64,000 nt of DNA, taken from the NCBI GenBank assembly GCA_964016885.1, contig OZ024740.1, positions 11,966,001 to 12,030,000 on the forward strand, written 5' to 3'. Positions within the stretch are counted from its first letter, which is position 1, and every line of letters begins with the position of its first letter. The notes below the pieces were generated by a model. The model made no database searches, was not told where the DNA came from, and saw only the letters and a list, made by a program, of their open reading frames with translations. A program made the position numbers and the translations under genes. Shown here in pieces: positions 1 through 64,000 of this stretch. This DNA is from Eledone cirrhosa (Eukaryota).

Positions 1-2
1 GA

Positions 3-611
3 TGTGGAAAGGCCCACAAAGCGACAGACTGCCCCTTCAAAGAAGCCAAATGTCATTTTTGTGACAAAAAGGGACATTTGCAAGCGGTGTGTAGAAAGAA
101 ACAACATCAGCAACGTAATCATCGCTCACAGAATTACGTGAAAAGAATCACGAAAGCTGAGCTAGTCAAGGCGATCCTTGGTGAAGTTCCCCACGATACT
201 CATAGTTTGAATGTGCCAATAACAATCCAGAACAGACTTTTCACAATGGAATTGGACACGGCTACTACAGGCAATTTTGTTTCCTTGTCAGTTTGGAAAC
301 AATTAGGAAAACCGAAGCTGCAAGATGTCAAACATCGGTTTGAATCTGCCAGCAAGCACGACCTGCCCGTTCTGGGAACTTTCATGGCCCAAACCAACGA
401 CCGGTAAATGGAATTCAATACCCTACATCGTCACCAAGATCCCTGATCTTAATTTGCTGGGACAAAACGCTATCCAGACTCTGGGAATTTCCGTGGACAA
501 TGCTCTAGGATTGAAAAGCATAGACAGCCAGGCCAAGAGTGAGGGTGCAGAAGTGATGCATCCAAAGACCTCAAATGAGCCCTATATTTCCATCAACGAG
601 ATTGTCACAAC
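3..611 (+). pseudogene. Gag C-terminal zinc knuckles plus aspartic protease, disrupted by two frameshifts (near 405 and near 590)
   Basis: Frame 3 reads CGKAHKATDCPFKEAKCHFCDKKGHLQAVC (tandem CCHC); protease motif MELDTATT (DTG-like); second protease motif NLLG lies in a different frame (ORF 325..681). Confidence 0.88.
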
Positions 612-3416
612 ATGTGTGATGAATTCCCAGATCTCTTCAAGCAAGAATTGGGATGTCTTAATGACTTCGAACTGGAAGTGAAGTTCAAGTCGGACGCGAC
701 ACCGGTCTTTCACAAGGCACGCCCGGTCCCGTTTGCTCTTCGTGATGACCTGGCCAAAGGTTATGAAGAAGGCATCGCCAAAGGAATCTGGAATCCAATA
801 CAGTTCAACGAATACGGAACACCAGTGGTACCGATTCGTAAAGCACATACTTCAGGCAACCTGAAGCCCAAACTACGGATTTGTGGTGACTACTCTGTGG
901 GAATTAATGACCAACTTGCAGATCATCGTCATCCAATGCCACTCCCAGAGGAACTGATGCAGAAGCTCGGAGGTGGATTCGGATACACAAAGATTGATCT
1001 TGCTGATGCCTATAATCAGATCAAGCTGGCTCCAGAAAGTCAACGCAGGCTTGCACTCAGCACTCACCGTGGGGTGCTCCTGCAGGAACGACTCCCTTTC
1101 GGAATCAAGTCAGCACCTGGTTACTTTCAGGAGATCATGGAAAACCTGACTCAAGATCTACCTGGTGTGGCCGTTTTCCAGGACGACATGCTCGTCAGTG
1201 GGAAAGATGCAAACGATCACCTGAACAACCTAAAGTGTCTGCTCACACGTCTGTGCGACAAAGGACTCAGATGTCGCCGTGACAAGTGCCAGTTTGCACT
1301 ACCCAGTGTGGAATACCTTGGACACACCTTGTCAGCTGAAGGGATCGCGAAGGGATCCAAGGTCGAAGCAGTTTTAAAGATGCCACCTCCAACGAACGTC
1401 TCAAGCTTGAAGTCTTTCCTGGGTTCAGTTCAGTTCTATGGAAAGTTTATCCCAAACCTGGCCAGCATGGCAGAGCCACTCTATTGCCTTACGAAAAAAA
1501 CGACTACTTGGAAGTGGGGAGATGAAGAACAGTCAGCTTTCAATCAGTTGAAAAATGTGCTTTCATCGGATCGAGTTCTGATACACTTCGATCCAAACAA
1601 AACTTTGGGACGGGCTTGCAACGCGTCAAACGTTGGTATTGGAGCAGTCCTGTTTTATCGCTATCCTGATGGAAGCGAGCGCCCAATATCCAATGTGTCC
1701 AAGACTCTTACTTCTGCACAGCGTAACTACGGCCAAATTCAAAAGGAAGCCCTGGCCATCATATTTGGCTTGCAGAAGTTCTATCAGTATCTGTACGGAC
1801 ATCAGTTTATACTCGTAACTGACCACAAGCCACTGACATCACTGTTCAGTCCGAGGATAGGGACGCCACTTCTCGCTGCTAACCGACTAGCACGGTGGGC
1901 CCTGTGGCTGAACGAGTTTGACTACACCATCGAATATCGGAAAACAGCGGATCATGGCAATGCAGATGCCCTCAGTCGCTTGCCATTTGGTAATGACATC
2001 GACTTTGACAGGAAGGAAAATGGTGAAGACATGGACATGATGTGCGCCATCAAAGCTCTCAGTCTTCAAATCCAACCTAGCGATTCTAACGTCCTCCGTC
2101 AAGAGTCAGGGAAAGATCCAGTGATATCTACAGTGATACGCTACGTCCGTGAAGGCTGGCCACCAAAGAATACTGAGATCAATGACGAAGTCAATAAGTT
2201 CCGGAAGTTATCGGATTCACTCAGTATCTGCCACGGATGCCTTATCCATGGATCGAGAGTTGTGATTCCACATAGCTTACAGCCAAAGATCCTCAATCTT
2301 CTGCATCTTGGACACTTTGGCATGGAGCGCATGAAACAATTGGCAAGAACTGCTGTTTATTGGCCTGGTATCGATGCTGCTATAGAGAAAACCAGTCGAC
2401 AATGTGATCTGTGTGGTGAACATCAAAACCAGCCATCCAAGTCTCCAATTCACCCATGGATGTTACCTGAAAAGCCGTGGAGCCGCTTCCACCTGGACCA
2501 CGCAATAAATTTCATGGGCAGTAATTGGTTGGTGATCACGGATGCTTATTCCAAGTATCCATGCATTCATCCTACGTCATCCACGTCCTCCAGAGCCACT
2601 TTAGATCTGCTTGAAGAAGACTTTGCGCACTTCGGATTTCCTCACACGCTAGTCACCGATAACGCACCGACTTTTATTTCTGAGGAGTTCCAGAGCTGGT
2701 GCAAAGAACGTGGGATCACGCACCTGACAGGGGCACCTTACTACCCAGCTACTAACGGAGCAGCGGAACGTTTGGTGCAGACCTTCAAACAAGCTCAGAG
2801 GAAGACTTCTCTTCCGCCGAAGCGAGCACTTCAAGAGTTCTTGATGCAGTACCGGAGAACACCAACATCCAGTGGATTCTCTCTGAGTGAACTTTTGAAT
2901 CACCGGCAGATACGGACAAGGATTGATTCTCTGCTGCCCTCGCCAGCACACATCGCTCAAGGCAAGCAGTCTAAAGAAGCATATAAGTCTCAGATGACTG
3001 CGGACTCGGCAGGTGTCGCTAAGGTTACCAGGCAGTACAAGGCTGGAGATCCTGTGTATGCACTGTACTACGGACCTCGCCGAGACAAAGATCCCCGATG
3101 GGTACCAGCAATCATTAAGAAGTCATTGGGTACTCGTTGCTTCAACGTTAAGGTCATACCTCATGGCCTGGTGTGGAGACGACACTGGGAACAGCTGCAA
3201 CCGCGGTACACTACTGAGGAAGACAATGAACCTGGTGATGCAGTAGACACCGTTTTTGAATTTGCAACAGATCACCCGATGGAGATCTCGGAAATCGTGC
3301 CACTAACTCCAAGACAGACCAGACCCAAGACCTTGTTGCCCGTTCCAGAGTATGGACCAGACAATCGAAGACGGTCCAAGAGAACTCGTAAACCCCCAGA
3401 GAGACTTTGCTGTTGA
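612..3416 (+). CDS. Pol polyprotein (RT-RNase H-integrase), 934-aa open segment; probably inactive copy
   Basis: RT motifs LRICGDY, KIDLADAY, LPFG, FQDD; RNase H region ACNAS (catalytic D apparently replaced by N), TDHKPL, NADALSR; integrase HHCC (HLGH...CDLC), D-D-E core (HLDHA, TDNA, AAER). Confidence 0.95.
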   Translation: MCDEFPDLFKQELGCLNDFELEVKFKSDATPVFHKARPVPFALRDDLAKGYEEGIAKGIWNPIQFNEYGTPVVPIRKAHTSGNLKPKLRICGDYSVGINDQLADHRHPMPLPEELMQKLGGGFGYTKIDLADAYNQIKLAPESQRRLALSTHRGVLLQERLPFGIKSAPGYFQEIMENLTQDLPGVAVFQDDMLVSGKDANDHLNNLKCLLTRLCDKGLRCRRDKCQFALPSVEYLGHTLSAEGIAKGSKVEAVLKMPPPTNVSSLKSFLGSVQFYGKFIPNLASMAEPLYCLTKKTTTWKWGDEEQSAFNQLKNVLSSDRVLIHFDPNKTLGRACNASNVGIGAVLFYRYPDGSERPISNVSKTLTSAQRNYGQIQKEALAIIFGLQKFYQYLYGHQFILVTDHKPLTSLFSPRIGTPLLAANRLARWALWLNEFDYTIEYRKTADHGNADALSRLPFGNDIDFDRKENGEDMDMMCAIKALSLQIQPSDSNVLRQESGKDPVISTVIRYVREGWPPKNTEINDEVNKFRKLSDSLSICHGCLIHGSRVVIPHSLQPKILNLLHLGHFGMERMKQLARTAVYWPGIDAAIEKTSRQCDLCGEHQNQPSKSPIHPWMLPEKPWSRFHLDHAINFMGSNWLVITDAYSKYPCIHPTSSTSSRATLDLLEEDFAHFGFPHTLVTDNAPTFISEEFQSWCKERGITHLTGAPYYPATNGAAERLVQTFKQAQRKTSLPPKRALQEFLMQYRRTPTSSGFSLSELLNHRQIRTRIDSLLPSPAHIAQGKQSKEAYKSQMTADSAGVAKVTRQYKAGDPVYALYYGPRRDKDPRWVPAIIKKSLGTRCFNVKVIPHGLVWRRHWEQLQPRYTTEEDNEPGDAVDTVFEFATDHPMEISEIVPLTPRQTRPKTLLPVPEYGPDNRRRSKRTRKPPERLCC

Positions 3417-3450
3417 TGCTTCTTTTGTCGCATCAATTTCGGTGGGGAGG

Positions 3451-3723
3451 TGTTGTATGGACTGGGAATCGAACTCACAACCTCATTGTTGTATGGACTG
3501 TTAAATTCGATTTGTTCAATTTACACGTGCTCACACATTGGCATATGAATCACGTGACCTGGGCAGTCAGTCAGCGTTGGTATTAAAAACTCGGTCACAG
3601 ACTACTTACTTACTTTATGTTATTCTGTTACTGCGAGGAGGGGCGTTTTGGTTGTTTCGCAAATTACACAAATTATTTGATATAACTCGTGTTTTCTCTG
3701 CGAGTACCGAGAGGAATACAACA
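3451..3723 (+). repeat. 3' long terminal repeat (273 bp)
   Basis: TG...CA ends with 8-bp terminal inverted repeat TGTTGTAT/ATACAACA; follows PPT; both ends are confirmed by the homologous copy at 57336-57544 (minus). Confidence 0.93.
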
Positions 3724-4093: not shown

Positions 4094-4124
4094 ATAAAAA
4101 CAGATCCGGTTTTGCTGGTATATT

Positions 4125-4911: not shown

Positions 4912-6370
4912 AGATAGCCTACATCACACAGGGACCAATAGAAATAATATATAACATATTTGATATAGCCTACATCACATGGGTACCAATCATCATCATC
5001 ATCATTTTATGTCTGCTTTTCTCTGCTATATTAGAGATGACCTACATGACATAGGGACCAATAGAAATAATATATAACAAATTAGAGATGACCTACATTA
5101 CATAGGGACCAATAGAAATAATATATAACATATATTAGAGATGACCTACATTACATAGGGACCAATAGAAATAATATATAACATATATTAGAGATGACCT
5201 ACATTACATAGGGACCAATAGAAATAATATATAACATAAATTAGAGATGACCTACATGACATAGGGACCAATAGAAATAATATATAACATATATTAGAGA
5301 TGACCTACATTACATAGGGACCAATAGAAATAATATATAACATATATTAGAGATAGCCTACATGACATAGGGACCAATAGAAATAATATATAACATATAT
5401 TAGAGATGACCTACATGACATAGGGACCAATAGAAATAATATATAACAAATTAGAGATGACCTACATTACATAGGGACCAATAGAAATAATATATAACAT
5501 ATATTAGAGATGACCTACATGACATAGGGACCAATAGAAATAATATATAACAAATTAGAGATGACCTACATTACATAGGGACCAATAGAAATAATATATA
5601 ACATATATTAGAGATGACCTACATTACATAGGGACCAATAGAAATAATATATAACATATATTAGAGATGACCTACATAACATAGGGACCAATAGAAATAA
5701 TATATAACATATATTAGAGATAGCCTACATGACATAGGGACCAATAGAAATAATATATAACATATATTAGAGATAGCCTACATGACATAGGGACCAATAG
5801 AAATAATATATAACATATATTAGAGATGACCTACATTACATAGGGACCAATAGAAATAATATATAACATATATTAGAGATGACCTACATTACATAGGGAC
5901 CAATAGAAATAATATATAACATAAATTAGAGATGACCTACATTACATAGGGACCAATAGAAATAATATATAACATAAATTAGAGATGACCTACATGACAT
6001 AGGGACCAATAGAAATAATATATAACATAAATTAGAGATGACCTACATGACATAGGGACCAATAGAAATAATATATATATATATAAAACTGAGGATGTCT
6101 GTCTGTGTGTGTGTTCTTTGAATCCCTAAAACTCAAGAACCACCAAACCCACTGTTTTCAAACTTTACACATGTAATACTTATGTTTCAGGGAGTGTTCT
6201 GAGCAAAAGAAATTTCACATTTTCAATGCCCTAGGGAACACATTAGGCGATTTAGCGATCTCTCTCTATAATTCTTAGTCTTTCTCTTTTTCGATAGATA
6301 CATACATATAACGTTGCGCCCTTATAATACCTGTCTGTATGTCTGTCTGCATTACGTCACTTCCCTGAGG

Positions 6371-6405
<35 letters not shown>

Positions 6406-7326
6406 TGTGTGTGAGTTTGAATCCCTAAAACTCGAGAAGTACCCAACCGATATTTTTCAAACTTTACATGTGTATTACTTATGTTTCAGGGAGTGTTATG
6501 CACATAAAAAAATTCAACGTTTTCATCTCCTAGGGCCCACATTAGGTGAAAAACTGCGTTTTTTAAGCTTTTTAGGGGTCTTTTGAGGCGTTACGTCAGT
6601 TATAATTTCAAGGAAATCGGTCTATGTATTAGTCAGTCTCTTCTTCATACCGTGAGCAAAGAAAATCTAACTTTTTTATGGCCGAGGGCTCGCATTAGGT
6701 GAAAAACTTCATTTTTTCAGCTTTTTAGGGCTTTTTGGAGGCATTACGTCTAGCCGATTTTCCCGAAATTTCAAGGCATATTATGCACATAAAAAAAATT
6801 TATTTTCTTGATCCCCTAGAGCCCGCATTAGGTGAAAACCTGCATTTTTGCTGCTTCATCGAGGAAAATCTTAAAGATTATCCAGCCATCAGAGTATTCG
6901 GTTTATTTTCTTTACATAATGTCTAGGCATGCAGTTTTTCTACGATTAGGTCTGTTGGCGGCCTTCCAAAATACCTTATCCTATGCAACGCCGGGTACCA
7001 CTGCTAGTATAACATATATTAGAGATAGCCTACATTACATAGGGACCAATAGAAATAATATATAACAAATTAGAGATGACCTACATTACATAGGGACCAA
7101 TAGAAATAATATATAACAAATATTAGAGATGACCTACATTACATAGGGACCAATAGAAATAATATATAACAAATTAGAGATGACCTACATTACATAGGGA
7201 CCAATAGAAATAATATATAAATATTAGAGATGACCTACATTACATAGGGACCAATAGAAATAATATATAACATATATTAGAGATGACCTACATTACATAG
7301 GGACCAATAGAAATAATATATAACAA
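4912..7326. repeat. 50-52-bp minisatellite array, interrupted at ~4990-5027 and 6074-7007
   Basis: Unit ATATTAGAGATGACCTACATTACATAGGGACCAATAGAAATAATATATAACAT; about 22 copies left of the insertion and about 6 right of it. Confidence 0.97.
6074..7007 (+). mobile_element. Non-autonomous Helitron-like element
   Basis: Inserted between A and T of a minisatellite unit without TSD; 5' end TATATATATATAAAA; 3' end GCAACGCCGGGTACCACTGCTAG (degenerate hairpin plus CTAG); internal duplicated blocks near 6117-6245 and 6416-6546. Confidence 0.82.
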
Positions 7327-8116
7327 ACTAGTTTTAAAAGAGTAAAAATGAAAACATGACATTGTGCTTGAGTTTATTCATCTGTACATCTATGCACATG
7401 CATGTGTGTACATGTATACATGTATGTACATGTATACATGTGTGCATACATGCATGTATGTGCATGTAGGGTACCTTGTCTATTGTAGTGATTTAGTGTA
7501 CACTGAGTAATGTAGTGATATAGGGTAGACAATAAGTTTACAAACCACTGCTATGTTATAAGGCAAGTGTTTGAGAGTCTAACAATAGACATACAGGTCA
7601 GGGGTTTATAGAGGTGGGATACAGCTGAATCATCATTTTTACGTCCACTTTCCATGCTTGCATGGGTTGGACATATTGGTCGCGCTTTTCATAATTTTGG
7701 CTGGGTTTTACTGGCTGGATGCCCTTCCTTTCACCAACCACTTTACAGCGTGGACTGGGTGCATTTTTCATGCTACCAGCACTAGAGAGGTTGTCTTACC
7801 AAACTTAAGAATCCTCTCCACCCTGTATCAGTTTTCTATTTGGAGTGTCTACTCTCCTAGACGGGTTGCCTTCACTATCACTTATGGAGCCCACATCTGC
7901 CTCATGAAAACAAACATAATAGGAGGGTAGGGAGGAGAAGGTGATGCAGTACAATAATAGAACAAAGAAAGGGGATATTTTCTCTGATGATGGACTTATT
8001 GTTGCCCTGTCTGAAGCTGATGCTACAAATGAAAATATATCCTACTTTCCCTTAAATTTCAATTCTTTCTGTCTTAAATGGAAACTTTAACAATTATATA
8101 TATATATATATATATA

Positions 8117-9884
8117 CTAATCAGAGAGCGAATTGATCTAGATGAAATGAAGTTTGGGTTTGTGTCAGGTAAAAGTACCAGACGGTCTTTTCCTTGTACG
8201 ACAACTACAAGAGAAGTACCTAGCTAAAAGTAAACCCCTATACTTAGCTTTTGTAGACCTGGAAAAAGCCTTTGACAGAGTCCACCACTCCATTATCTGG
8301 TGGGCTCTTAGAAAACTAGGTGTAGATGAATGGCTTGTGAGAGCTATACAAGCCATGTATAATGAAACAGTCAGTAAGGTTAGAATAAACAATGAATATT
8401 GTGAAGAATTTAGTGTAAAAGTTGGTGTTCACCAAGGCTCTGTCCTTAGCCCCCTCCTATTTATTATTGCCCTTCAGGCTATAACAGAGGAGTTCAAGAC
8501 CGGCTGCCCATGGGAACTCCTATACGCAGATGATCTAAGGCTCATAGCTGAATCAATGGCTGAACTAGAAAAGAAATTCCAAACATGGAAGCATGGCCTA
8601 GAATCAAAAGGCCTTAAAGTTAACTTGTCTAAGACTAAAGTCCTAGTTTATAGGAAGGAAAATAAGGCACAGGTACCCTCAGGAAAATGGCCTTGCTCAG
8701 TGTTTAGGAAAGGAGTAGGCAGAAATTCAATTTTATGTCCCAAATGCAAAGTATGGGTACATAAAAGATGTAGTGGGATCACAGGTAAACTATCTAAGAA
8801 CGTAGACTTTATATGTGGCCGTTGCTCAGGTGCAACAGGTAGCAAGTGTCCACAGGATACTAGCCCCTTCTATTGCCCAGATGGTTCTATAGAAATAGTA
8901 AACACTTTCCATTACCTCAGTGACAAAATCAGCAGTGGTGGAGGGTGCTCTGAAAGTACAGTAGCCAGAGTCAGAACAGGATGGAAAAAGTTCAGAGAGC
9001 TTATACCGCTGTTGGCCACAAAAGGTTTCTCTCTAAAAATGAAAGGCAGATTGTATGATGCTTGTATACGAACAGCAATGCTACATGGCAGTGAGACATG
9101 GGCATTACGTGCAGAGGACTTGCGTAGACTGGAGAGGAACGAAGCATGCATGCTCCGTTGGATGTGTAATAGTAATATACGTGAACGGCAAAGCATAAAT
9201 GAACTAAGTGAGAAATTAGAAATAAGAGGGATCAGATGCTGTTTACTCGAGAGAAGACTACGTTGGTATGGTCACGTGATGCGCATGAAAGACGACAGCT
9301 GCATAAAAAAGTGCAGGGCGATCAAAATTGATGGTAGTTACGGAGTAAGTAGACCCAGAAAAACCTGGGACGATCTGATAAATTCCGACCTTACACACTT
9401 ACACCTCTCTAAGACAATGTCACTGGACCGAGATCTTTGGCGCTACGCAGTAATACAGAAGACCCGCCTTGCCTATGTACAAAGCGAAACCTAGTCAGTA
9501 GGCACCTCTTAACCAAATATACACCCCAATCCACTACCCCTATCCTATCTTCCCACTCCCACCAACACCAACCTCTCTCTATAAAGTTGGTACCACAACA
9601 TCCAGTCCAAATAAATGAGATCGAGGTTGTGTAGGTGTCACGACAAAAAAACACACAGTCCACGCTGTAATGTGGCCGTGTAGGTAACACGGTAAAAACC
9701 TCCCAGTCCACACTGTAAATGTGGTTGGTGTTAGGAAGGGCATCCAACCGTAGAAAACCTGCCAGATAGTCATATATGAGCGAGACATGGTCACCCGACC
9801 AACCTTGCCTCAAGCGGGACAACTCCCGTCTAACCCATGCTAGCGTGGAAAATAGACGTTAAACGAAGATGATGATGATCATGA
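8117..9884 (+). mobile_element. 5'-truncated RTE-clade LINE with 3' UTR and (GAT)n tail
   Basis: Starts inside RT (LIRERIDLDEMKFGF); ends TAACCCATGCTAGCGTGGAAAATAGACGTTAAACGAAGATGATGATGA; (TA)n on both flanks. Confidence 0.93.
8154..9494 (+). pseudogene. RTE reverse transcriptase C-terminal part with embedded PHD-like Cys/His finger
   Basis: FVDLEKAFD, GVHQGSVLSP, YADD, RRLRWYGHV, RPRKTW motifs; frameshift near 8170; no endonuclease domain (truncated). Confidence 0.92.
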
Positions 9885-11300: not shown

Positions 11301-13109
11301 TTGAATTAATTATTGAAGAAATTTACTAAGGTTATTAATGATTTCATTATTAAGATGGTATTTGAATCATAAGATAACAAAAGTAAAATTATGTTGGAAG
11401 ATTTTAATTTAAATGCATGCAAGCATGGACCCCTAACTCCTGAGTGAGTTATACGGGTGCTGTATTGACAGTATTTCTAGGGCAGTTTTAAACCTGGCAA
11501 ACTCATCTCTCCAGGTCTGAATACAGCAGATTTCTTCCCGAGAAGGCTAGAGAGTGAGAAAGAGATAGAGGAAGAACCAACCCCATTACTTGACTGGTTC
11601 TTTTTTATCAACCTGGAATGGATAAAAGGCAAAGTTGACCTTGGTTCGTTTAAATAGAAACCCTTTAAATTGGGTGGTTTTGTTTCATAGAACCAGCGGC
11701 AGTTTTAAGTTGGAATCAAAAGGGATATGAAAATATACAGGCATTATAACAAAGAATATGTGAAGGAAGACAGCCTAGTGGTGAAGTTGTTAGTCTCATT
11801 GTCACAAGGTTGTAGGTTCGATACTGAAAATGAGTGCCAGCAGCTGCTCGGATAAAACCTTGTGACAGACTGGCATTCTATTCCAAAGTAATGTATAACC
11901 ATGTAGAGACAAATGAGATGCAGAGTCGTTTTATACGACAGTTGCCCTAGATACAGTGGAATAGAACCCAGGATCACAGGTTTATGAAGCAAACATCTTA
12001 AACAACTGTCAATGATACCTCTAGCTATCTCTATATCAACATATTCTAAGGACCAACCATTAAATTGAAATAATTTTGAGCTACAACTTATTTTATAGCT
12101 AAGAAAACGATAGAGATTGAGACAAGTCAATGAGGGAATTTACATGAGGTCCTGCAACCTACTAGAAATAGCAGACAAACCTCTTCCAAATCACATTTTA
12201 CTGACTGAAATAAGGGAGGACACATTTAAGAATGTAGTCGATAATATACAAAAGACAGGAATGTCATGGCCTTTCATTATAGGGAGTAAGTTCAATCAAG
12301 ACTGTCTTAGATTTGAACAACAATACTAAGTGTATGTATGTGTGCATATATATATATGCATGTTAACATGTGCATTTCTGCATGTGTGTGGATGTGTGCC
12401 ATTCAGTATGAGTGTGCGTGATAATATTTTGGGAAATATCAAAATTCAGAAGCCATCCCATATAGTAACAGACAGCATCATCATCATCAACAGCACCACT
12501 ATATCCATTTCATGATAGTTGAACAGGACATCTCCAGTCAACCTGATCAGCTGCCAGATTCAATATCCCAGTTCTATAACAGATTGCCTCACGGGAACCC
12601 CATCACCATCAACATGCATCATGCATATGTTGTAGTCACCTCTCATTGTGCAGTCAGTCACATTTCACTGGGCACAAGTAATTTCTCTGACTCACTACAC
12701 AACCAGTGAACCGTAACAATTTTGATCCTCCCCTTCCAGTAGCTAACTGACCTTCTCCATCTTTTTTACTACCATGCAGCTTCACACTGAGGTAGACTAC
12801 ATAGCCGCTCCACCTGATAGAAATAGCAGCAAAATCTCTATTACATTACACTCTATTGTCTTAAAAAAGGAAGGCCACACTGAATAATGTAGTTCTAGAT
12901 ATACCACAAAAGATAGTCAGGATTAGAATGTCCTTTGATCGCAGACGTCTTAGATCAGAGGAAGGGGTTGAACAACAAAAATAGTTATGACGAAATGTGC
13001 ATCATAATTGGACCTCTGTCAGTTTCAACGATGAGTATTCCAGTTTAGTTAACAGATTGGTTTGTTCATTAAACTAACTAGCAGAAAAACCAGCCTTCAG
13101 GTGGCGTTT

Positions 13110-13708
13110 CTGCTAACATGTGTAGTGTGTATATTGATATTATAGGCAAGTATATATACATGTAGATATTATATATCTGCTAGTATGTGTAGTGTGTATA
13201 TTGATATTATAGGCAAGTATATATACATGTAGATATTATATATCTGCTAGTATGTGTAGTGTGTATATTGATATTATAGGCAAGTATATATACATGTAGA
13301 TATTATATATCTGCTAGTATGTGTAGTGTGTATATTGATATTATAGGCAAGTATATATACATGTAGATATTATATATCTGCTAGTATGTGTAGTGTGTAT
13401 ATTGATATTATAGGCAAGTATATATACATGTAGATATGATATATCTGCTAGTATGTGTAGTGTGTATATTGATATTATAGGCAAGTATATATACATGTAG
13501 ATATTATATATCTGCTAGTATGTGTAGTGTGTATATTGATATTATACACAAGTATATATACATGTAGATATTATATATCTGCTAGTATGTGTAGTGTGTA
13601 TATTGATATTATACACAAGTATATATACATGTAGATATGATATATCTGCTAGTATGTGTAGTGTGTATATTGATATTATACACAAGTATATATACATGTA
13701 GATATGAT
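13110..13708. repeat. 67-bp minisatellite, about 9 copies
   Basis: CTGCTAG recurs at 13177, 13244, ... (period 67). Confidence 0.96.
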
Positions 13709-14619
13709 ACAACAAATAACATCGTAATTGACAATATACACAGAAATTGAAGGAAGACTGTGTTACACTGTCTTATGTAATCAGTAACGTAATTCATGAT
13801 ACATTAAAAAAAGACGATATTATATATAAACTGCATTAGGATAAAATTAGTGACAAATATATGAATGTTTGTTTAAGCGATCGCTAACCGGAAGTGTTGA
13901 CATTTGAAAATTTTAAAGTGAATCTTAAAATAAGCAACAAAATTATTTATATTTAATCAAGAATAACAAAATTTAGTAGATACATTATGTTAATATTCAT
14001 TCATTATTTCTTCAAAATAATCCAACTTATTTTACAAACAGGATAAAAAATATATTCTGGACGCAGTCCCACACTCCTTACTTTATTATAGTTTAGATTT
14101 ATAGCTCAATATTTCACTGACCACTGTTTGGTCAAGTAGCTCAATATTCTGCTGACCAATGTACTTTTAACATAGTTACTAAGTCAAATCAGTTTGACAC
14201 AATGTGACATAGCTGCACCTATCAATTGCAGATAGAGTCCCTTTGACAAACTTCTAATCAGATTCTGTCTATTCCACTTTACACACAAGGCTTCGGTTGA
14301 CCTGAGGCTGCAGTACAAGGATAGGCTGAACAGTTCATAGGCCGACTCTGAAGGAGTGATGCTAGAGCTATGAAATCTTACATGTATTAATTTCAACTTA
14401 ATTTCAAATGCATTGTTTATTTCCAGGGACTATGTTGAAAAATAAACCTCATTTGGTCATTCCATGAGAATATCTTGGTCACACTATAAATTATTCAGCT
14501 GACCTTTGTAAGACACCGAAAATACCAGACAATGGAACAGAACCTGAAACTTTAAGAGTGTTAAACAATCTTCTTAACCATTTGGTCATACTGCTTACAA
14601 TTAGACCAATACAGCTTAG

Positions 14620-18535: not shown

Positions 18536-21240
18536 TCAACAGCTAACAACTGACGCAGGCAGTTTGTTCCATGCTTCAGCAACTCTGAGCGTGAAAAAAT
18601 GTTTCCGAAAGTCATGGGAGCTGTGTTGTTTTCTGATTTTGTAGGCATGTCCACATGTGTTAGACACATGGAGATCAAAAAGGTGCTCCGGGTTGTTGTT
18701 GGCGAGATGGTTAATAACTTTGTGGGTGTTTACCAAGTCCATTGCCAAACATCGGAGCTTCAATGAATCCATGCACAGGGAAGCAAGGTGTTCAGAGTAT
18801 GGTAGGTGTCTGATTGGAGGATATGCGCTTGGTTTCACGTCTCTGAACAAGATAGGGGTTCCAGACTGATGTGAATTCCAAGTGTGGTCGTACCATAGCT
18901 GTATACAGCTTTAAATAGATGGCTGGAGAGCGGCTAACAAAGGTCTTGCTGAGTGATGCCAAGACACCCTCGGCCTTCTTGACAATCTTAGAGATGTGCT
19001 TTGTCCAACGCAAATCGCTGCTGACAGTAATGCCCAGGTCACGTTCACAAGAGGACTTCTTGATATCAGTGTTGTGGAGGGAGTGTGTGGACGCTGGGTT
19101 TTTCCTCCCAAAATGCATGATGGTACACTTGTCCACAGCCAGCTTCAGTTGCCAGTCTGTGATCCATTGCTGCATTGTGTGCAGGTCTGATTGTAGGAAA
19201 GAGTTGTAGATTTCAGGATCTGTCCTTTTGATTTCAAGGTACAGCTTGATGTCATCTGCATATTTTAGTACCGTGGCATTCTTTAAGTTGGCATCTATCT
19301 CATTAATATATGCCACAAACAAAAGGGGACCAAGAACAGATCCCTGTGGTACACCAGATGACATCTCATATGGTGAAGAATGCTGTTCTAGAACCGTGAC
19401 TACCTCTTTTCGGCTGAGAATGAAGGATTTCAACCAGTCGAAAAGATCATCCCTCACACCCATTGCAGAGAGTTTCGCCATAAGTCTTTTGTGTGGCACA
19501 GAATTAAAAGCCTTAGCGAAGTCAAGGTAAACAACATCCACCCATGAGCCGCTGTCAGTGATCCGGGTAATGTCTTCAAGGAACTCGATAAGCTGATCAC
19601 AGCAGCTGGAGTTAGGGATAAATCCAAATTGCGAGGGTCGGATGAGGCTGTGAAAGCTCCAGAAGTTCCAAAGTGCTTCTCTGACACACGATTCCATCAG
19701 TTTGGCAATACAGCTAGTAAGACAGACTGGACAATAGTTGACAGGTGACGTGCGGTCGCCCTTTTTGAAGAGGGGAATGACACTGGCAGTTTTCCACTGC
19801 TCCGGAGTAGCACCATTGTTGAGACAGTATTGAAAGAAGAAAGAAAGCTGGTGCAAAACCCTCCACGTTTGAGAAGCAGGTATGTAACACCATCAAGACC
19901 AGGGGAGGCATAGTTGCACTTATTCTTAAGGTGACGTCGCAACATTGCAGGTGTAAATTTCATAGTTGTTATGGAATTTGATGTTAGAGATGATGGAGAT
20001 GGTACATTCTGGTTTTCAACAGTAAAAATGCTTGCATAGCACTCAGCAATGAGTTCTGCGCATTCCTTGGGATCGTCAGTGATCTGGCTTGTGTGGGGAT
20101 TGCGAAGAGGACCAACTGGAGAGTGAGGTCTCTGCTTTGAATGTACATATTTCCAGAACACCTTACTGTCAGGATTGGTTGCTATGCACTGTTCAAATTC
20201 AAGCACTGCCTTTCTTGTCACTTGCTTGAGATGGTTGGAAGATTTATTCCGCTTCTTTCTGTTGGCATCTGATTTATGCAGTTTATATTCCTGTTCAGCA
20301 TTTCAACGTTCTTTCCTGGCAAGTCGGACCACTGAAGTTTCCCAAATTGCACTTTTGGGGTGTTTTTTTTTCTGCTTACGTGGCACTGATGCTGCACATG
20401 CTATCTATATTGAGTCCAGGATGCTCTGGAGTATAGTGTTCACATCTCCAGAGTTATAGAACTCATGCGAGTTTGGGCACTGTAGCTCAGTGCAGTACAA
20501 GTTCCAATCTGCTTTCTTCCAATCATAGCAAGCAGATTGGAGATGGTTCTGATTTTTGCTGCTGCTCGCAAGAGCCAGATTGATAATGATCATAGCATGA
20601 TCAGAGTCGCCTAGAGGTTCCTCAGTAGTACAACTGATAACCACTTCAGGAGTCGTGGTGAAGATCAGGTCCAAAGTGTTGTCACCTCTTGTTGGAGAGG
20701 TGACTACTTGTGACCAGTTTGAGTCCAGCACTAGCTCAAGGAAATCGTTTGCACTTTGTGGCCAACGAAAGGTTTCCCAATCAATCTCAGGATGATTGAA
20801 GTCACCTGCAATAAACACATAAGTGGCTGTTTTCCTGGCAGCAGCTCTGAGGATATCGCAAAGCTGTGTGTCCTGATGGTAGTTTGGGGGGCGATAAACA
20901 ACACCAAGCAGAAGTGTTGACATGGTCATACGTATGTCACAGAAAAAAACTTGTGATTCGTTCAAATCAATGCAAGGAATTACCGAAAAGTTTGAACGAA
21001 CGTAGACCATCACACCACCACCACAGCGATTAATGCGGAACAGGTTGTACCCAGTAATGCTGAAAACTCCATCACAGAGTAAGGGATGTGCCCAAGTTTC
21101 CGTGACTGAAGTTAGGGTCTATGCTTCTGACGTAGGAGTTAAACAGATGTATCTTGTTGCTTAAACTGCGAGCATTTAAGGACAACAATTTGTACCCTGC
21201 TTGCAGTTTATGATGGTGTGTAGAGGATAGCAGGTTGTTC
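18536..21240 (-). pseudogene. CR1 ORF2 (APE endonuclease plus reverse transcriptase), with several frameshifts/stops
   Basis: Split across ORFs 20405..21013, 19697..20221, 18792..19856 and 18536..18850; no ATG seen at its 5' end immediately after the ORF1 stop. Confidence 0.93.
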
Positions 21241-54041: not shown

Positions 54042-54391
54042 TTAAATATCTTCCAACATAATTATATATAAGAATATTTTGGAATATTACAAAAACCATT
54101 TAAATAATTAAATAATAATTATATCTGTGTATCTGTTACCCATATGTATACAACCATAGCCATGTGTATCTGTGTCAACCCTATCCTTGTCATAATAAAT
54201 GATAGGAAGGGCATCCCTCTGTAAAACTTTCCTTCAAAACGTCCCATCCCAACCATACCAACTTGAAAATGCTGATATAAAAATCATGATTATAGTAAAT
54301 CTGTCCAAATGTATCATTAATTAATTGAAATACAGTATATGTCATTAGAAATTTGGTAATGAGATGGTTAATGAGTGTATCCATAGATTGT

Positions 54392-54455
54392 GAAGGCGCG
54401 TGGCTGAGTGGTTAGAGAATTGGATTTGCAATCGTGAAGTTGTGAGTTCAATTCA
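54392..54455 (+). mobile_element. tRNA-like SINE head (A and B boxes)
   Basis: GGCGCGTGGCTGAGTGGTTAGAG...GTGAGTTCAATTC; no complete cloverleaf. Confidence 0.7.
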
Positions 54456-56575
54456 CATTGCTCCTTCTGGATTTGTGACCAGTAGATAGTTTTAGCAACT
54501 GAAAAGACCAATGGAAACATTGTTTCCTCGGTCCAATTTGACGAGTTCCACTCCACTCGTTAAGCGAACGAGGTCTGGAATTTTGTCAATTGACTGTTAT
54601 TAATAGAGGCTCTGCTCAGTGTCTGAAAATGATGGACAACTTCACTGTTTGCACCACAGCAAGATAACTTTTGAACTACCATAGAATAAAATTCACAATC
54701 ATTTCACCACTAATGGGCCCCATTTATTTAACCTTTTCATTACCATATTTCTAATGGAAGAGTCTATAAATTTCAAGACCTTTTGAAAATACTCAAAAGT
54801 TCTTACATAAAGTTAAGATGGAAGCTTATTATATAAATAAAAGGGTTGGCCTCAGAAAGGGCATTTGGTTGTAAAACATCCCATCCAGCCCATGCTAGTA
54901 TGGAAAAGTGGACATAAAAACAATGATGATGATGATGTTAAACACTTTAAACAGCTTTGTATTGGGGTGGTTCAGACTGTTTGATATCAAAAGAGAAAAA
55001 TGAATTTCCCTAAAGATATCCCAGGTATTTTTATTGGTCTATCAACTAAACAAGTTGACAGATATCCAGTACTACCTTTGTCACCCTCTCTATCCCCACC
55101 TTATTGGTCCATGGACAACAGGTTGGCAACAACTGGTATACAGCAATGTCCCCCTACTCCCATATCATTGGTCCATGGACAACAGGGAACTGGTATACAG
55201 CAATGGACTGCTACAAAGCAAAAGGGTTTTTTTAATCACAGAGAATTTGGAGATAGAAAGAAATTCCATCATTTGGCATGTAACGCAGGGGAGCCATACC
55301 CTACATGCTGACCCAGTGCAGGTTGGTAGGTAGGGGATGGATGTGGTCTTGGTCTGGAACCACGATCCCAATCTTCTCAACATCGTTGAACATGCTTGGC
55401 ATAGCTTGATTTTTCCTCGGTCCTCACAGGCCCATCCATTTTTCCACACTTGCATGGGACGGTAACTTCATACCTGTTCATGGCCTCTCAACACCTGATG
55501 CTTGTTCTTTGGATAACTTTCTGAACTCAACTTCCAGAAACTGTCACAAGAGCCATCTCAGCTGAGTCATGGGTTTTTTTTGCTGGATGCCCTTCCTATC
55601 ACCAACCACATTACAGCATGGACCTGGTACATTTTATTAAGCCACCAACACTGGGGATGTCTGACAGGATTTAAGGACCCTCTCTACTCTGTATCAGATT
55701 ATATTCAGAGACACTGCTCTCCTGGACAGGTTGCCTTTGCTACAGCTTACAGAGTCCCTGTATCTCACCACCTGGAATGAAGTAAATAATTTATTGACCC
55801 TACCCCCTGCCCCCACACTCAGTAAACCAATGCTGTTATTGTTCACTAATGCCAGATATAAATAGCAAAGTAAAATGTATTGTATATACAAATATTATTA
55901 TGAACTGATCTATTTGAACTATTGAATTGATTGATTTGTCGATTCTCCCATTGACAGGCAAACCTGTATACTTAAGAGTTATTTTGCAGCCACAAGGCTT
56001 TTTGCTTCTATCCCATTGTATAACACCTTGAGCAAGTGTTATTTACTGTAGCTCCAGACTGACCAATGCCATGAGTGGATTTGATTGACAGAAACTGTAC
56101 AAATACTTTTATATATTTGTGTGTTTCCAGGTTTTTGCTTCATATTTGACACCATTAGCACAAGTGGTAACATTTGTTTATGTTCCACATAAACATAAGT
56201 CCAGTTCAACATGCAAAGGGTTGACATGAGGAAGGACATCCAACAGTAAAATACTAAAAAACTTTCATCCAACCCATGCTAGCATGGAACAACATGGTAA
56301 AATGATAATCATTATCATGAAAGTCCTCATCATGGTTGTGCGTCATATTCTGTAATCTAAGAATTTTGAACCAAAGCTCTTATTCTGACCAAGGGAGTAA
56401 ACTTCTCATTTTGTTCTCCATGTTTGGGATATCCTTGTGTTAGTTACTTGTGGTGCCTACTTTTTTTACTTAAACTAGAGTATATAGGGTTTAGTTGAAA
56501 ATTCCAAGAACATTACCAAATATAACTGACACATAAGAATGACTGGTGGATCACAAGTCTGAATAAATCAGTTGA

Positions 56576-56730
56576 TAATAATGGTTTCTGATTTAGGCAC
56601 AAGGCCAACAATTTGGGAGGAGGTGTAAGTCAATTAAATCCATCCCAGTACATTACTGGTACTTTATTTTATCGACCCCGTAAGGATGAAAAGCAAAGCT
56701 AACCAAGGCTGGATTTCAACTCAGAACGCA
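56576..56730 (-). mobile_element. Nin/Deu-domain-like SINE, 3' part
   Basis: aataatggtttctgatttaggcacaaggcc...tttatcgaccccgtaaggatgaaaagcaaag...atttcaactcagaac. Confidence 0.85.
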
Positions 56731-56929
56731 TGTTGTCTGACACTCTACTGCTAATATTAATAATAGTTATTCACCTCAGAAATTCAGACATTATCATTAT
56801 CAGCAACATTTAATATCTGCTTTCCCAGCTGGCAAGGATTGGACTACAGTGGACAGAGGCACCTATGAGGAATTAAACAGTATTTCTCAAATACCAAGTG
56901 AATGTGTTACCATTGCACTAATGAGTGAC

Positions 56930-57170
<241 letters not shown>

Positions 57171-57211
57171 CATTTTATTTTTCTATTATATGCTATACTT
57201 GCATAATCTCC

Positions 57212-57544
57212 TGTTGTATTCCATCTGTTCTCTAAACAACTTTATTAGCTCCGCTGTTTGTTGTTCCGCCATGTTTTTGTGATAAACAATTTCCTGGCAA
57301 TGTAGGTAAATCCTATCGGCGACGCCAATAAACTCTGTTGTATTCCTCTCGGTACTCGCAGAGAAAAGACGAGTTATGTCAAATAATGTGTAATTTGCGA
57401 AACGACCAAAACGCCCCTCCTCGCAGTAGAAGAATAACAAAGTGAAAATGGTGAAGACATGGACATGGTGTGCGCCATCAAAGCTCTCAGTCTTCAGTCC
57501 ATACAATAATGAGGTTGTGAGTTCGATTCCCAGTCCATACAACA
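57212..57544 (-). mobile_element. 333-bp internally deleted derivative of the Gypsy family at 1-3723 (rearranged 5' LTR, PBS, gag start, last 11 bp of LTR), CTCC target duplication
   Basis: LTR homology 57336-57544; PBS TGGCGTCGCCGATAGGATT (57309-57327); ATG GCG GAA CAA (MAEQQTAELIKLFREQME); terminus GGAATACAACA; CTCC at 57208-57211 and 57545-57548. Confidence 0.9.
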
Positions 57545-57851
57545 CTCCTGCTAACTAAAACTTTTGTGTTTGCTGAATTTATTGTGAAGGTGGATGGCTT
57601 AGTGGTAAGGGTGTTGAACTTGAGATCCTAATGCTATGGATTCAATTCCTGCTATGTAAAGAATTGAATGTGGACAAAAGAAAGTAGACAAAAGAAAACA
57701 TGAAAGAAATGCTGATTCAACAGAACCTTAAAAGAGATGACAAATAAATGTAACAAGTGATGAAACAGTACATATAAGCATGGAAAAGCAGATGTAAAAA
57801 TAAGAGAAAAACAATATTTATGGCATCACTTCTCTCCCCTACAAAGTGGGA

Positions 57852-57965
57852 AAGACAGCCAATAGCAAGCAAGCTTATATACAGCTACTCATAAAGACAG
57901 CCAATAGCAAGCAAGCTTATATACAGCTACTCATAAAGACAGCCAATAGCAAGCAAGCTTATATA
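57852..57965. repeat. 42-bp tandem repeat, about 2.7 copies
   Basis: AAGACAGCCAATAGCAAGCAAGCTTATATACAGCTACTCATA repeated. Confidence 0.92.
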
Positions 57966-58177
57966 GAGTTATTCCTCGACTTACAGCCATGTTCCAATCT
58001 ACCGGGTCATATGGATGTGAAGACCTCTTTATATAATCTGGGGAGAGTTAATACCTTATATGTAGTGACTGTGTAACTCATACAATCTTTCTTATGCAAT
58101 ATATTACATGCAAGTTACCATATTTTACTTTTATCTTTCTATAGCTTGCTTACTATTATTTCATATTATAACACAGA

Positions 58178-58398
58178 GGGTGGTGGATTGGCGGTATTGG
58201 TAAAGCATCAGACACCATGCTTTGCAGCATAGAGTTGTGGCCCTTTACGTTCTGAGTTCAAATGCCACCGAGGTTAGCTTTGCCTTTCATCCTTACAAGG
58301 GTTGATAAAATAAAGTACCAGTAATGCACTGAGGTCGATTTAATCAACTTTCAATTTCCCCAAATTGTTGGCCTTGTGCCTAAATCAGAAACCATATT
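58178..58398 (+). mobile_element. Intact-length tRNA-derived SINE with Nin/Deu-domain-like core
   Basis: A box TGGCGGTATTGG, B box GAGTTCAAATGC, core GCCTTTCATCCTT...GATAAAATAAAGTACCAG, tail GGCCTTGTGCCTAAATCAGAAACCAT. Confidence 0.85.
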
Positions 58399-59062
58399 AT
58401 AACACAAACCACACTAACTAGTATATGTTACAGATAGTATATTATAACATGAAGAGAGCCAGGCTGGGAATGTTTTAATGTCAAGATGAATATAAAATGA
58501 AACCATGATGATAGAAGGCCCTGGAAACAGCTTGTTCTAATTAGTTTAATGTATTTCTCATCATAAGCAATACAGAGGGAGTGGGTAAGAAGACATGGGG
58601 TTGTGTAACAGATGTCAGAAGAACATGTAAAAATATAAATGATTGTAAACTACATGTGTTCAGAAATTGCATAAGTTGTATCTCAGTGGATGCATCCGTG
58701 TGTGTGGCTGTGTATACAACATACACTAGATTATTAGATTATACAAGCCAATGATCATCTCTAAACAGTCACTTGACCTGCTAGAATTAACAGCAAAGTC
58801 TCCATCAGATAACTATTCCTAGAATACAATCATAGATGCTCACAGCTAGAATGCCTTTCGTTATAGCTAAGTGTCAACTATATGCTTCTCATAAAAAAGT
58901 CTCACATTCTACCGAGTGCACAGGAGAGGTTGTCATGTCTTTGACACTTGAGAGTCCTCCCAATATATAGTATAGTTGATTTACTGGCTCTCTCTCTCTC
59001 TCTCTCTGTGCTATACTTTTGTCTATATATGTATTAACTATCTATTTTTAATATTAACTTAT

Positions 59063-59375
59063 AAGTGAGACTAGCCAAGTTCATGGATGTTATCCAATGA
59101 CCCCGAGCAAGATGGTTGGATAACATCCATGAACTTGGCTGGCCTCACTTGGGGAAAGAATCACTAGACAGATTTTATGGGCAAAACCAAGTGGCAAGAG
59201 ACCCAGGCATAGACCCCAAGCAAGATGGTTGGATAACATCCATGAACTTGGCTAGTCTCACTTGGGATCCAGAAGAATCAGTTGGTGATGTTTGCTTCAG
59301 ACAGGACTTGCTGGGAGGAGTGTTTAAGAATTCTGACCCCACAATCCTCTCAGGAATAAGTGGGCAAAGAAGGGA
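59063..59375 (+). mobile_element. 3' fragment of an RTE-like LINE with 5' inversion/duplication
   Basis: Reads AKPSGKRPRHRPQARWLDNIHELG(*)SHLG, resembling RTE C-termini (R.RGRP..RW.D); 35-bp inverted copy at the 5' end. Confidence 0.6.
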
Positions 59376-60809
59376 CATTACTAGAGCAATGGTAAGACTA
59401 AAGTGGACAACACAGATAATATATATTAAACATGATATGTACTCATAAGTTACAACAGTAGATAAGTCACATCCCTTTAATCATCATCATCATCATCATA
59501 CGTCCGCTTTTCCCTGCTTGCAAGGGTGGGACGGGAACTGATTCTGGCTTAATTTCTACAGCTGATGCCCTTCCTAACACCAACCTCATTTACAGTGAGT
59601 GCTAGGTGTTTTTTTTTGCTGTGGCACCTCCACGACCACTTTGCAGTGGAATGATAGGGACCCCAGTCCCTATCATCTCATTTCTACAGCTGAGTAAACT
59701 GGAGCAATGTGAAATAAAGTGTCTTGCTCAAGGAAACAACACATCACCCGGTCTGAGAATTATTATAATACTTATAATAATTTTATTTCAAGCCCAGAAC
59801 AAGGTCCAATAGATGTCTTATGTGGCATTTCAAGTCTGACTTTTTCCTTTAATATAAAACTACCACTCATCCACAAATGTATATACACTATATATGCAAA
59901 CACACTTTACTTATATATATACACACACTATATATGCAAACACACTTTATTTATATATATATACACTATATATACAAACACACTTTACTTCAAAATATAC
60001 ACAATCGTGCAGTCATGTTAAACAATACACACCACACAGGCTGACAAATACGCATACATTACAGATGTTAAACGATGCTAAAGATACATAAACATTATAA
60101 ATGCATGTGTGAGTATGTGTATGTATATATGTATGAGTGTCACATATATATCAGTGTGTATGTGCAGAGTGCATGTGTATATACACATATGCATGTTTGT
60201 ATATGTGTATGTGGTTTTGTGTGTATATGTGGAGGGTGCATGTATATATACATATGCATGTGTGAGAATGCACGTATGTATGCATAATGCATAAATGGAT
60301 ATAAAAAAGAAAATATACAAAAAGGAATAGAATGAAAGTGAAAATAGAGGAGGGGGGTGAGAATGCTGATGGATTGTGTGGAATGGAAAGGAATAATAGA
60401 GGAGACGAGCATGGAAGAGAGAAAGAGACAGGAAATGTTCAAAATGTCTGCCTAAAATGCATTGAATGTATATTATATATGAGCGACATCAAAACGTGGG
60501 ATAGGAGGAAGACAGAGGACAGCAAGAATGGTACAGTGGTTAATATGGAGGGTGTGGGGGCATAGAGACGCAAGAGGGGAGGGCTGGAGTCTCAAGTGGC
60601 ATGTTTATGTGTGTATGAGGGCAAAGAATCGATCATCAGGTGCTTGTTAGTTAGCAAGACTGGCATTTTAATGATGTGAAACTATGCTGATGAAGGGGGG
60701 GGGGGGGGGGGGGTGAAGGAGAAAATTCTTTAGAACCACCGGCCACAGACAGACTAATAATTGTTTACAGAGGGTCTGCTAGACAGAGAGAGAAGATTTT
60801 TAGATGGTG

Positions 60810-60863
60810 TTGAGAGAGAAAGAGTGACAGGGGAGAGAGCAAGGCTATTTGTAAAGAGATTTA

Positions 60864-60905
<42 letters not shown>

Positions 60906-61091
60906 GAGAGGAGAGAGAAAGAGAGAGAGAAAGGCAGTTTATAGAAAGATTTAGATGATGAGAGATACAGAGAGACTGGGAAGAATTGTTTACAGATGGG
61001 ATGCTAGTGTCAGAGAGAGCAAGGCAGCTAGTAGAACAATTGAGATAGAGACAAGGAGCAACTGTTTACAGATGATGGACTGCTAGTGTTT

Positions 61092-61138
<47 letters not shown>

Positions 61139-61181
61139 AGAGAGAGAGAGAGAGGAGAGAGAGCAGAGAGAGAGAGAGAGA

Positions 61182-61226
<45 letters not shown>
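60810..61226. repeat. (GA)n microsatellite cluster, preceded by a poly-G run at ~60694-60713
   Basis: Directly visible. Confidence 0.95.
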
Positions 61227-61232
<6 letters not shown>

Positions 61233-62640
61233 AACAATTTAGTCATAATAAATGTCTTTTGAACGTGACTAAAGTTACTGGTGCATTATATAACAGTACT
61301 GTAGTAATTTCTATAGAGAAACATGTTTCCATCATTTACTATAAACAATGATTTTTTTCTGTTAAAGACAACACAAGCAATATCTACATATTCCAACGAA
61401 GTATATATGAGACTTAAACACTATAGTTGACTTTAACGACTGCTGGAGAGAAATGGAGATTAATTGATATTTATAGAAAGATTACGATAGGAGTGTATTC
61501 AAAGACCCAGTATTCGATAAAGTGACAGTGCTTATAAGAAATAATAACGATGATAATAATGTATGAATATCATCATCAGACAGGGTTTATCATTAAATAT
61601 TGATGACGTGATATTGCCGGTCACAGAAGAATATGTGACAACTATTTCTTCAACTCCCAGCTGGAATAAACCATCTCCCTTCACATAGACTTTGCAAAGA
61701 GAAGAAGCATGAATATCTTAACATCCCACAGTGTATGTATATAGTCTGGAATTTGCAGACGAAACGACAAGAGCTTTCACGTCCGGTTCCTAATATATAT
61801 ATATATTTAATACAATAACAGAGATAGTTTAAAGCTAAACTCTGACTGGTAACCATCTCACTCAACAAACATTAGGTTATATTAAAATATAAACCCAATT
61901 TAAGTGTTTGGGGTGCTAACAATATGTATAATGTGGCAAAATCAGTTGTATTATTTTATGAGATATAATTAAAGTTAAATATATATAAAATGGAATAGAA
62001 TGAAATGAATATATACACTCTCTTTAATATATATACAAGGGGCGGTTCCCCAGCAGCCGGGTTGGCTGGGAACAGGTAAAAGAGTATGTATGTGTGTATA
62101 TAATATATATAGATATATAAGCTTCAAGCACAGGCATCGCTTGATATGTGACATTTATTGCGATACATGGCTGGCCATAGGCAAGTTCTAGCAGGACTAA
62201 AAACCCGCGTCCGTGATGCTGAAGTATCAAGCCATCATATACATATAAATATATATATACACACGTCCAACCCATGCTATCATAGAAAAGGAGGTATATA
62301 AATGACGATGATGATATATATTCATACACACACAATATATATATATATATACACACACACACAGATACATAGACACACACTTGCAAAATAAAATGATTAG
62401 TAAGAGAGAGCTTGATAGGATTAGTGCAAATAATACATCGCAGATAACACAACCACCATACTACTACCCCAACCATTACTGTCTCGATGCCACTACAATG
62501 CAGTCAGGGTTGTTTTTTTTATTATTCTGCATCTGTTGCTAGCAACGATTGCAACCAGCAACTCTGCAAAATCTATCTGAGCTTACACACAGACACACAC
62601 CAAGACGCCATTTTTAATTCCATCATCACCATAGTCATCA

Positions 62641-63743
<1,103 letters not shown>

Positions 63744-64000
63744 CATGTAACAAATAAATGTTACGCGCTAGCAACAGACATTCCTTATGTGTGTGTGTGT
63801 ACCTTTATATCCGTGTGTGTGTATCTGTATGTGTGTGTATGTATGTAGAGACAATTATCATATAAGCCGTTAGTGATTTCGCTAATTAGATGAACTGTTA
63901 TGTTAGTCTCAGAAGAGGAGAATTAACAGCGTGTGCCATGTCCCACCTGACAGATGATGATGATGTATGTGGAATGGAAAACATTGTCACACGGGACAAG

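Follow-up and report, generated by a model that had tools for sequence, protein, structure and literature searches.

The window analysed here, 64,000 nucleotides of the Eledone cirrhosa genome (assembly GCA_964016885.1, contig OZ024740.1, positions 11,966,001 to 12,030,000 of the forward strand), contains at positions 57212-57544 a 333-bp sequence which looks like the long terminal repeat (LTR) of a Gypsy retrotransposon in which the promoter region has been exchanged for an inverted piece of pol. This raises the question of how so small a derivative could be built from its parent element, and whether it is able to move or to silence its relatives.

Based on self-BLAST of the window and alignment, the derivative consists of four segments of one Gypsy element type, one of them inverted, joined at three junctions. 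On the minus strand it reads LTR 1-50, 53 bp of antisense pol, LTR ~162-273, a spacer, the primer site, the leader with gag, and an LTR terminus. The features are as follows.

57212..57544, minus strand: whole 333-bp derivative, TGTTG...CAACA, single copy
57495..57544, minus strand: LTR positions 1-50, the U3 end, with an internal repeat of its first 14 bases
57444..57496, plus strand: 53-bp pol fragment from the RNase H-integrase linker, antisense to the element
57336..57443, minus strand: LTR positions ~162-273, predicted R-U5, starting at junction 2
57309..57327, minus strand: primer-binding site, 19 bases complementary to the 3' end of host tRNA-Ser
57219..57272, minus strand: gag start, first 17 codons, as far as junction 3 at the shared GGAA (57222-57219)
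57212..57218, minus strand: last 7 LTR bases (integrase attachment end), fused to gag
57208..57211, unstranded: target-site duplication, copy 1, CTCC (CTCCT if 57212 is counted)
57545..57549, unstranded: target-site duplication, copy 2, CTCC/CTCCT
1..3723, plus strand: 3' part of a 4,982-bp family copy (G000:C1:11964742-11969723) with reverse transcriptase (RT), RNase H, integrase, purine tract and 3' LTR (3451-3723)

Positions 57545-57495 of the window aligned with 3450-3500 (51 bp, 98%) and 57439-57336 with LTR positions 3618-3723 (93% identity), while 57444-57496 matched pol 2016-2068, which sits between the RNase H and integrase-zinc Pfam hits, over 53 bp with one mismatch (E 1e-18) in the orientation opposite to that of the LTR. 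LTR positions 51-161 (window 3501-3611, 111 bp) are absent, and both CACGTG boxes and TATTAAAA fall inside this stretch. A previous sequence-only reading had described an LTR that lacks about 110 bp with two CACGTG boxes, an inverted 53-bp pol insert with one mismatch, and a junction right after the second TGTATGGACTG repeat; the alignments agree in each respect, the last being junction 1. Beyond the two junctions then described, a third was found at 57219-57222, where the gag start is fused to an LTR-type terminus. The derivative has the LTR form GGAATACAACA at this junction, followed by host DNA; in other copies the corresponding gag sequence is GGAACAACA, or differs from it by one base.

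The derivative retains a perfect primer site, U5 and both LTR termini. A spacer of 8 bases (57328-57335) separates the primer site from the LTR, a spacing that is also a feature of the family, while this distance is usually about 2 bases. The second LTR comprises 11 bases only, so two terminal direct repeats are lacking, and gag passes straight into the LTR terminus with no 3' purine tract. The derivative is flanked by a duplication of CTCC (4 bp), which extends to CTCCT (5 bp) if a terminal A has been lost. No host gene was recognized nearby, as the 28 frames of at least 80 aa in 54100-64000 appeared by eye to be simple repeats or chance frames.

The parent family shows the pol order RT, RNase H and integrase (Pfam, window 579-3413) of Ty3/Gypsy elements, and its nearest atlas cluster is Gypsy-named and mostly molluscan among members with a record. 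Full copies are ~4.9 kb long, with two ~275-bp LTRs (TG...CA), a tRNA-Ser primer site and a 3' purine tract. The family may be Mag-like, to judge by its 5-bp duplication, two zinc knuckles and short LTR. The LTR-end motif has 204 exact genome matches and a motif within the insert has 102 (50 forward and 52 reverse), of which the 100 listed were mapped. An exact 5-bp duplication flanks 65 of the 79 two-LTR copies with both termini, 13 have none by exact match, one has a 3-bp match and none has a 4-bp match. The median LTR-LTR mismatch in two-LTR copies is 1.6%, and six true solo LTRs with duplications were identified (L078, L082, L083, L091, L092 and L093). The window's own copy serves here for comparison and is not necessarily the donor.

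Several additional observations concern the family and its surroundings. The window's Gypsy copy has the RT active-site motif FQDD, its frame is broken upstream of RT, and it lacks a flank duplication; it is adjoined by a 30-bp tandem repeat (3724-4092), followed by 53-bp and 67-bp arrays (4891-7331 and 13109-13709). A 25-kb satellite array occupies 28667-54099, and two more RT-bearing frames lie at 8151-9494 and 18792-19892. The family's gag holds a 22-24-base copy of the LTR end and primer site (~471-493 of the reference copy L040), with an extra such copy near reference 390 in 12 of 91 copies, and L130 and L164 carry a deletion from the real primer site to its gag copy. A tRNA-Ser-like tandem array with ~317-bp spacing is present at G000:C4:316.09-316.19 Mb; the tRNA-Ser motif has 200 genome matches, and all 100 matches listed fall within this array. 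In addition, four of the pol matches listed cluster within 1.7 Mb at C28:45.2-46.9 Mb, including the tandem or fragmented L173 and L174.

Copy number, authenticity and function

Each of the three junctions has a single match in the 3.0-Gb genome, compared with 102 matches for the pol motif, and junctions 1 and 3 remain single when two mismatches are allowed; one extra two-mismatch match, L192, proved unrelated on inspection. No further copy of the derivative was found by DNA search among the best 40 of 375 candidates scored. The mobile non-autonomous family that had been envisaged for this sequence is therefore not borne out, since each junction occurs once in the genome.

An assembly chimera of repeat copies has to be considered. 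No contig among those listed for four runs spans the three inner junctions, which would be expected of a chimera, but contigs drop rare variants and this does not amount to absence. In three runs of one sample, a contig carries the right flank joined to the LTR; the LTR part is 28 bases long, below the 31-base bridging threshold. Moreover, the derivative carries four substitutions common to only 0-1 of ~205 other LTRs, and the nearest of 205 LTRs differs from it by 4 substitutions and 2 indels (for 40 random LTRs, 0-5 substitutions to the nearest LTR, median 2); no subfamily with its LTR variants was found among the 205 LTRs. Such nearly private substitutions and so distant a nearest LTR indicate an older independent locus rather than a mosaic. 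Together with the biological microhomologies at its junctions and the flank duplication, these data make a chimera very improbable. Thus, the derivative is real, single-copy and structurally dead.

It had also been proposed that an antisense transcript of the derivative could feed silencing of the family. The retained primer site, U5 and termini, and the fact that a sense-strand transcript would carry 53 bases antisense to pol, would speak for mobility as a non-autonomous element, or for a role in supplying antisense small RNAs. Nevertheless, there is one copy, with neither a second LTR nor a 3' purine tract, its predicted promoter is deleted, the insert has no sense partner within the derivative, and ~100 other pol copies lie on both strands. 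The predicted fold is not significant (z -1.71, 5 of 100 shuffles as good) and contains no hairpin. Judged from its sequence, neither mobility nor silencing by the derivative is supported, and such a role is hardly credible. By the measure proposed in the sequence-only reading itself, the derivative reduces to a one-off rearrangement. As a dead one-off, the locus is of little consequence in itself; the timing of rearrangements in its family and one sibling copy, L088, are worth more.

Junction sequences and the origin of the derivative

The LTR breaks off with TGGACTG at junction 1, where the insert shares 2 bases with it; on the antisense strand of pol, the sequence immediately preceding the insert is TGGACTTG. 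The hexamer TGGACT occurs once on the antisense strand of L040 (4,888 bp), exactly at the junction-1 donor; it is present at 87 of 99 pol sites and absent from the window's own copy, so that it escaped the sequence-only reading. Since 59 of 99 pol sites in the fetched copies match the insert at 53/53 positions, the donor was not necessarily the window's copy, and the single mismatch of the insert reflects a variant in that full-length copy. None of the 11-mers of the insert occurs in 11.6 kb of flank. Only for synthesis of the sense strand is the homology at junction 1 located on the side made before the jump.

At junction 3, gag AGATGGAA meets LTR AGAGGAA with a crossover in GGAA, so that junctions 1 and 3 both show imperfect microhomology on the sense-strand side. 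An origin of junction 3 by primer slippage onto the primer-site copy in gag was set aside, as a copy is rightly placed in only 12 of 91 copies and is missing from 42 of the 43 copies with the same leader allele.

Junction 2 shows no clear homology. Its pol side (reference L040 position 3178) is inside AGGAAGGAAAA, an 11-base purine run that is one of the two longest of the element. Its LTR side lies 31 bases past the start of TATTAAAA in the window's LTR, at an initiator-like match to YYANWYY; as the spacing from the TATA-like element to the junction varies from 27 to 40 across LTRs, a transcription start at this base is a prediction, and TATTAAAA could instead be a poly(A) signal. Another copy, L110, resumes at the same LTR base after a deletion in its 5' LTR. 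A hairpin starting at junction 2 was also considered and rejected (segment z -0.1 to -1.0 in four natural copies).

The reading favoured here, with a probability of about 60%, is that three template jumps during reverse transcription produced the derivative, which was then probably integrated by the integrase of the element. Plus-strand synthesis starting from the 3' purine tract would have halted after 50 bases, and the end of this strand, TGGACTG, would have annealed to pol at its single matching site, the sense template being either RNA of the element or a plus-strand DNA fragment. Copying 53 bases backwards from this template would yield the antisense insert, until synthesis ran off the template's 5' end inside the central purine run. 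A homology-free jump onto minus-strand DNA near the predicted R start may have followed, after which R-U5, the primer site and the gag start would be copied, and a slip by AGA(T)GGAA homology would lead onto the LTR end. The resulting mini-cDNA might have been integrated directly, or might have been copied to both ends of a longer cDNA that was later reduced in the manner of a solo LTR.

Several features favour these template jumps. Both outer ends are LTR termini, with a duplication that fits the 5-bp rule if one A was lost; as in products of aberrant strand transfer, both attachment ends are kept and a target duplication is present, its terminal A being ambiguous. The match of TGGACT at the junction-1 donor is unique, and junction 2, with its lack of homology, would be consistent with synthesis running off the end of one template and resuming at an end of another. 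When the sense strand is followed, the homology at junction 3, like that at junction 1, falls on the side synthesized first, and copying of a sense template would yield an antisense insert. Against the template jumps stands the flank duplication, whose length is not unequivocally 5 bp.

Three mechanisms had been offered in the sequence-only reading, of which template switching is the best supported and microhomology-mediated repair is a live rival. Autointegration is unsupported because no junction links an LTR terminus to internal sequence: the inner junctions lie at LTR 50 and 162, away from the termini, and both termini join host flank. With regard to repair, a full-length copy may have inserted normally and later collapsed during break repair, in a single complex event or in two, either through template switching guided by microhomology or through end joining that took up a templated insert. 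The short imperfect homologies at junctions 1 and 3 are of the kind on which such repair draws, and yeast breaks are reported to gain local or distant templated insertions, including inverted ones (PMC11724301, in the part available). Furthermore, the derivative is comparatively old, and since it ranks with the more diverged copies there was time for repair after insertion; a 5-bp duplication minus one A fits any later history. Such repair has nevertheless to explain why the template was pol ~3 kb away and not the flank 50 bp away, an element-derived insert next to host DNA being a further point in favour of template jumps, and its last jump must land at most 11 bases from the element end. A later collapse is thus considered a real but minority possibility, on which the timing of rearrangements in the family also bears.

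Rearrangements in sibling copies

A total of 112 copies with internal sequence were mapped, after L097 was dropped as a duplicate fetch. The breakpoint map, which leaves out tandem-repeat expansions and insertions of other elements, holds 125 internal breakpoints in 51 copies, or 120 in 50 without L122, a duplicate of L121 (the two are one truncated copy, duplicated 2 Mb apart on C2). Inverted self-inserts between intact 5-bp duplications were found in four other copies, which also favours template jumps as the origin of the derivative. L086 has an 800-bp pol inversion with a break at reference 3170/3173, L089 has the purine tract and LTR start inverted within gag, and L148 has the primer site and U5 inverted within pol. 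The fourth, L088 (G000:C3:340957500-340967000), contains inverted pol arms at 3940-4243 and 4904-5207, each 304 bp and identical at 302 sites. It is young, with both LTRs intact and 1 LTR mismatch in 273, and its inverted piece repeats a deletion seen in no other fetched copy, so the template was the same molecule or lineage. In addition, L145 has a fold-back in its 3' LTR and L117 a 30-bp local inversion.

The timing of these changes was examined in 85 two-LTR copies. With LTR mismatch as a noisy clock and rearrangement classes assigned by hand, the 20 copies with small changes had a mean of 4.3 LTR mismatches and the 16 with large or inverted changes a mean of 5.1, against 6.9 expected if rearrangement were proportional to age (P 0.0004 and P 0.02, respectively); an age-independent model based on random draws fits the mismatch counts of the rearranged copies. 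Three inverted inserts differed from their own source at 4/100, 3/91 and 2/304 sites, a total of 9 compared with 7.2 expected if they are as old as the insertion and 3.6 if they arose uniformly later (P 0.012), a count that can be inflated by a different donor molecule; the L148 insert is matched less closely by its own LTR than by other copies. Some sibling deletions may come from a rearranged parent. All of these timing data come from siblings, as the derivative has no second LTR or pol of its own for dating. Taken together, the data support formation of the sibling rearrangements before integration.

This result argues against post-insertion repair, as family rearrangements are not enriched in older copies and the inverted inserts are insertion-aged, and it favours template jumps, because rearrangement frequency shows no rise with age, and the divergence between an inverted insert and its source is on a par with that between paired LTRs. 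The same age-independent timing, and the homology-free junction 2, would also fit a joining of unintegrated cDNA fragments (strong-stop DNA and a central plus-strand fragment) by host repair enzymes before or during integration. Repair proteins affect HIV proviral deletions (bioRxiv 2026.03.31.715508, as far as available), and for this reason microhomology does not identify the enzyme. However, the 6-base match used at junction 1 is unique, which is what extension of an annealed primer would predict, and the derivative has no fold-back filler bases like those in L088 and L089, which makes such joining improbable.

In one of 85 copies, L149, the primer site runs 35 bases into the T-arm of tRNA-Ser, which is an unambiguous error of reverse transcription fixed in the genome. 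One contig from another sample (L149:793-5702; run X4, depth 4.8) joins both flanks, which suggests that the L149 insertion is absent from at least one chromosome of that sample. No start site was detected on L149 in one small run with patchy cover.

With respect to the central purine run, three other copies break at reference 3170-3186, beside the exit at 3178 (permutation P 0.011). This cluster adjoins the point within the long purine run where template jumps would have left pol, and favours them to that extent. It is modest: 3 of 250 tiles contain as many as three copies, four are found in other sliding windows, and two of the three breaks at 3170-3186 are simply the ends of deletions; since other tiles and windows reach equal or higher counts, a central purine tract is a lead only.

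These findings suggest that most internal damage in family copies was already present at insertion and not acquired afterwards, which, if true, bears on the dating of LTR-element decay. The family survey also points to a possible central plus-strand start, and identifies in L088 one hairpin-bearing copy as a putative source of silencing RNA; with its predicted long hairpin RNA, L088 is a better silencing candidate than the derivative. A broader reading, considered unlikely, would be that the mini-cDNA was integrated directly, that its junctions are fossils of the RNA 5' end and of a central plus-strand start in the RNase H-integrase linker, and that strand-flipping errors routinely produce hairpin copies such as L088, which would act as the family's own Mu killer-like silencers from the time of insertion.

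Comparison with known systems

The derivative is a further case of an already known sort of defective LTR element. In a literature search mostly outside subscription journals, no account of a comparable product was found for any Gypsy family of animals. The closest parallels come from defective HIV-1 proviruses, for which the available part of PMC12657518 describes tRNA read-through as well as junctions located where R begins, close to the central purine tract and within the 5' LTR. The derivative resembles them in its large internal deletion and in LTR-region junctions at the predicted R 5' end and near a central purine run, and tRNA read-through is found here in the sibling L149. Damage confined to one LTR is a further likeness, and has been ascribed to reverse transcription (PMC9278108, available part). 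On the other hand, three jumps, one of them to the opposite strand, are packed here into 333 bp of a germline-inherited Gypsy copy, whereas the accessible text of PMC12657518 treats single deletions. Additional purine-rich plus-strand starts have been proposed for HIV (bioRxiv 2023.06.12.544617), and central purine tracts for Ty1 and EVADE (PMC7197481), according to the portions available. Retroviral 'deletion with insertion' mutants, in which a deleted stretch is likewise swapped for sequence from elsewhere in the element, have been attributed to template switching in what is available of PMC3187697.

Among small elements, TRIM and SMART retrotransposons share with the derivative a size of ~300 bp, TG...CA ends, a primer site and a target duplication, and FRetro129 (292 bp) indicates that elements so small are integrated; unlike the derivative, TRIMs occur in many copies and possess a purine tract and paired terminal repeats (PMC3281118, part available). 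A solo LTR is similar in being one LTR-sized piece between target duplications, but the derivative is missing 111 bp of the LTR and has in addition a primer site, antisense pol and the beginning of gag. The autointegration circles of Ty1 and Arabidopsis SISYPHUS also contain inversions and deletions of their own cDNA, with a link to the central purine tract flap in Ty1; as described in the accessible part of PMC7197481, circles join an LTR terminus to internal DNA, whereas here the termini join host DNA. Finally, Mu killer of maize is likewise a rearranged derivative with inverted element sequence, but it makes a long hairpin RNA (PMC1563492, in the part available), for which the insert of the derivative would have no sense partner. 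The sibling L088, with its Mu killer-like hairpin arms, resembles Mu killer far more closely than the derivative does.
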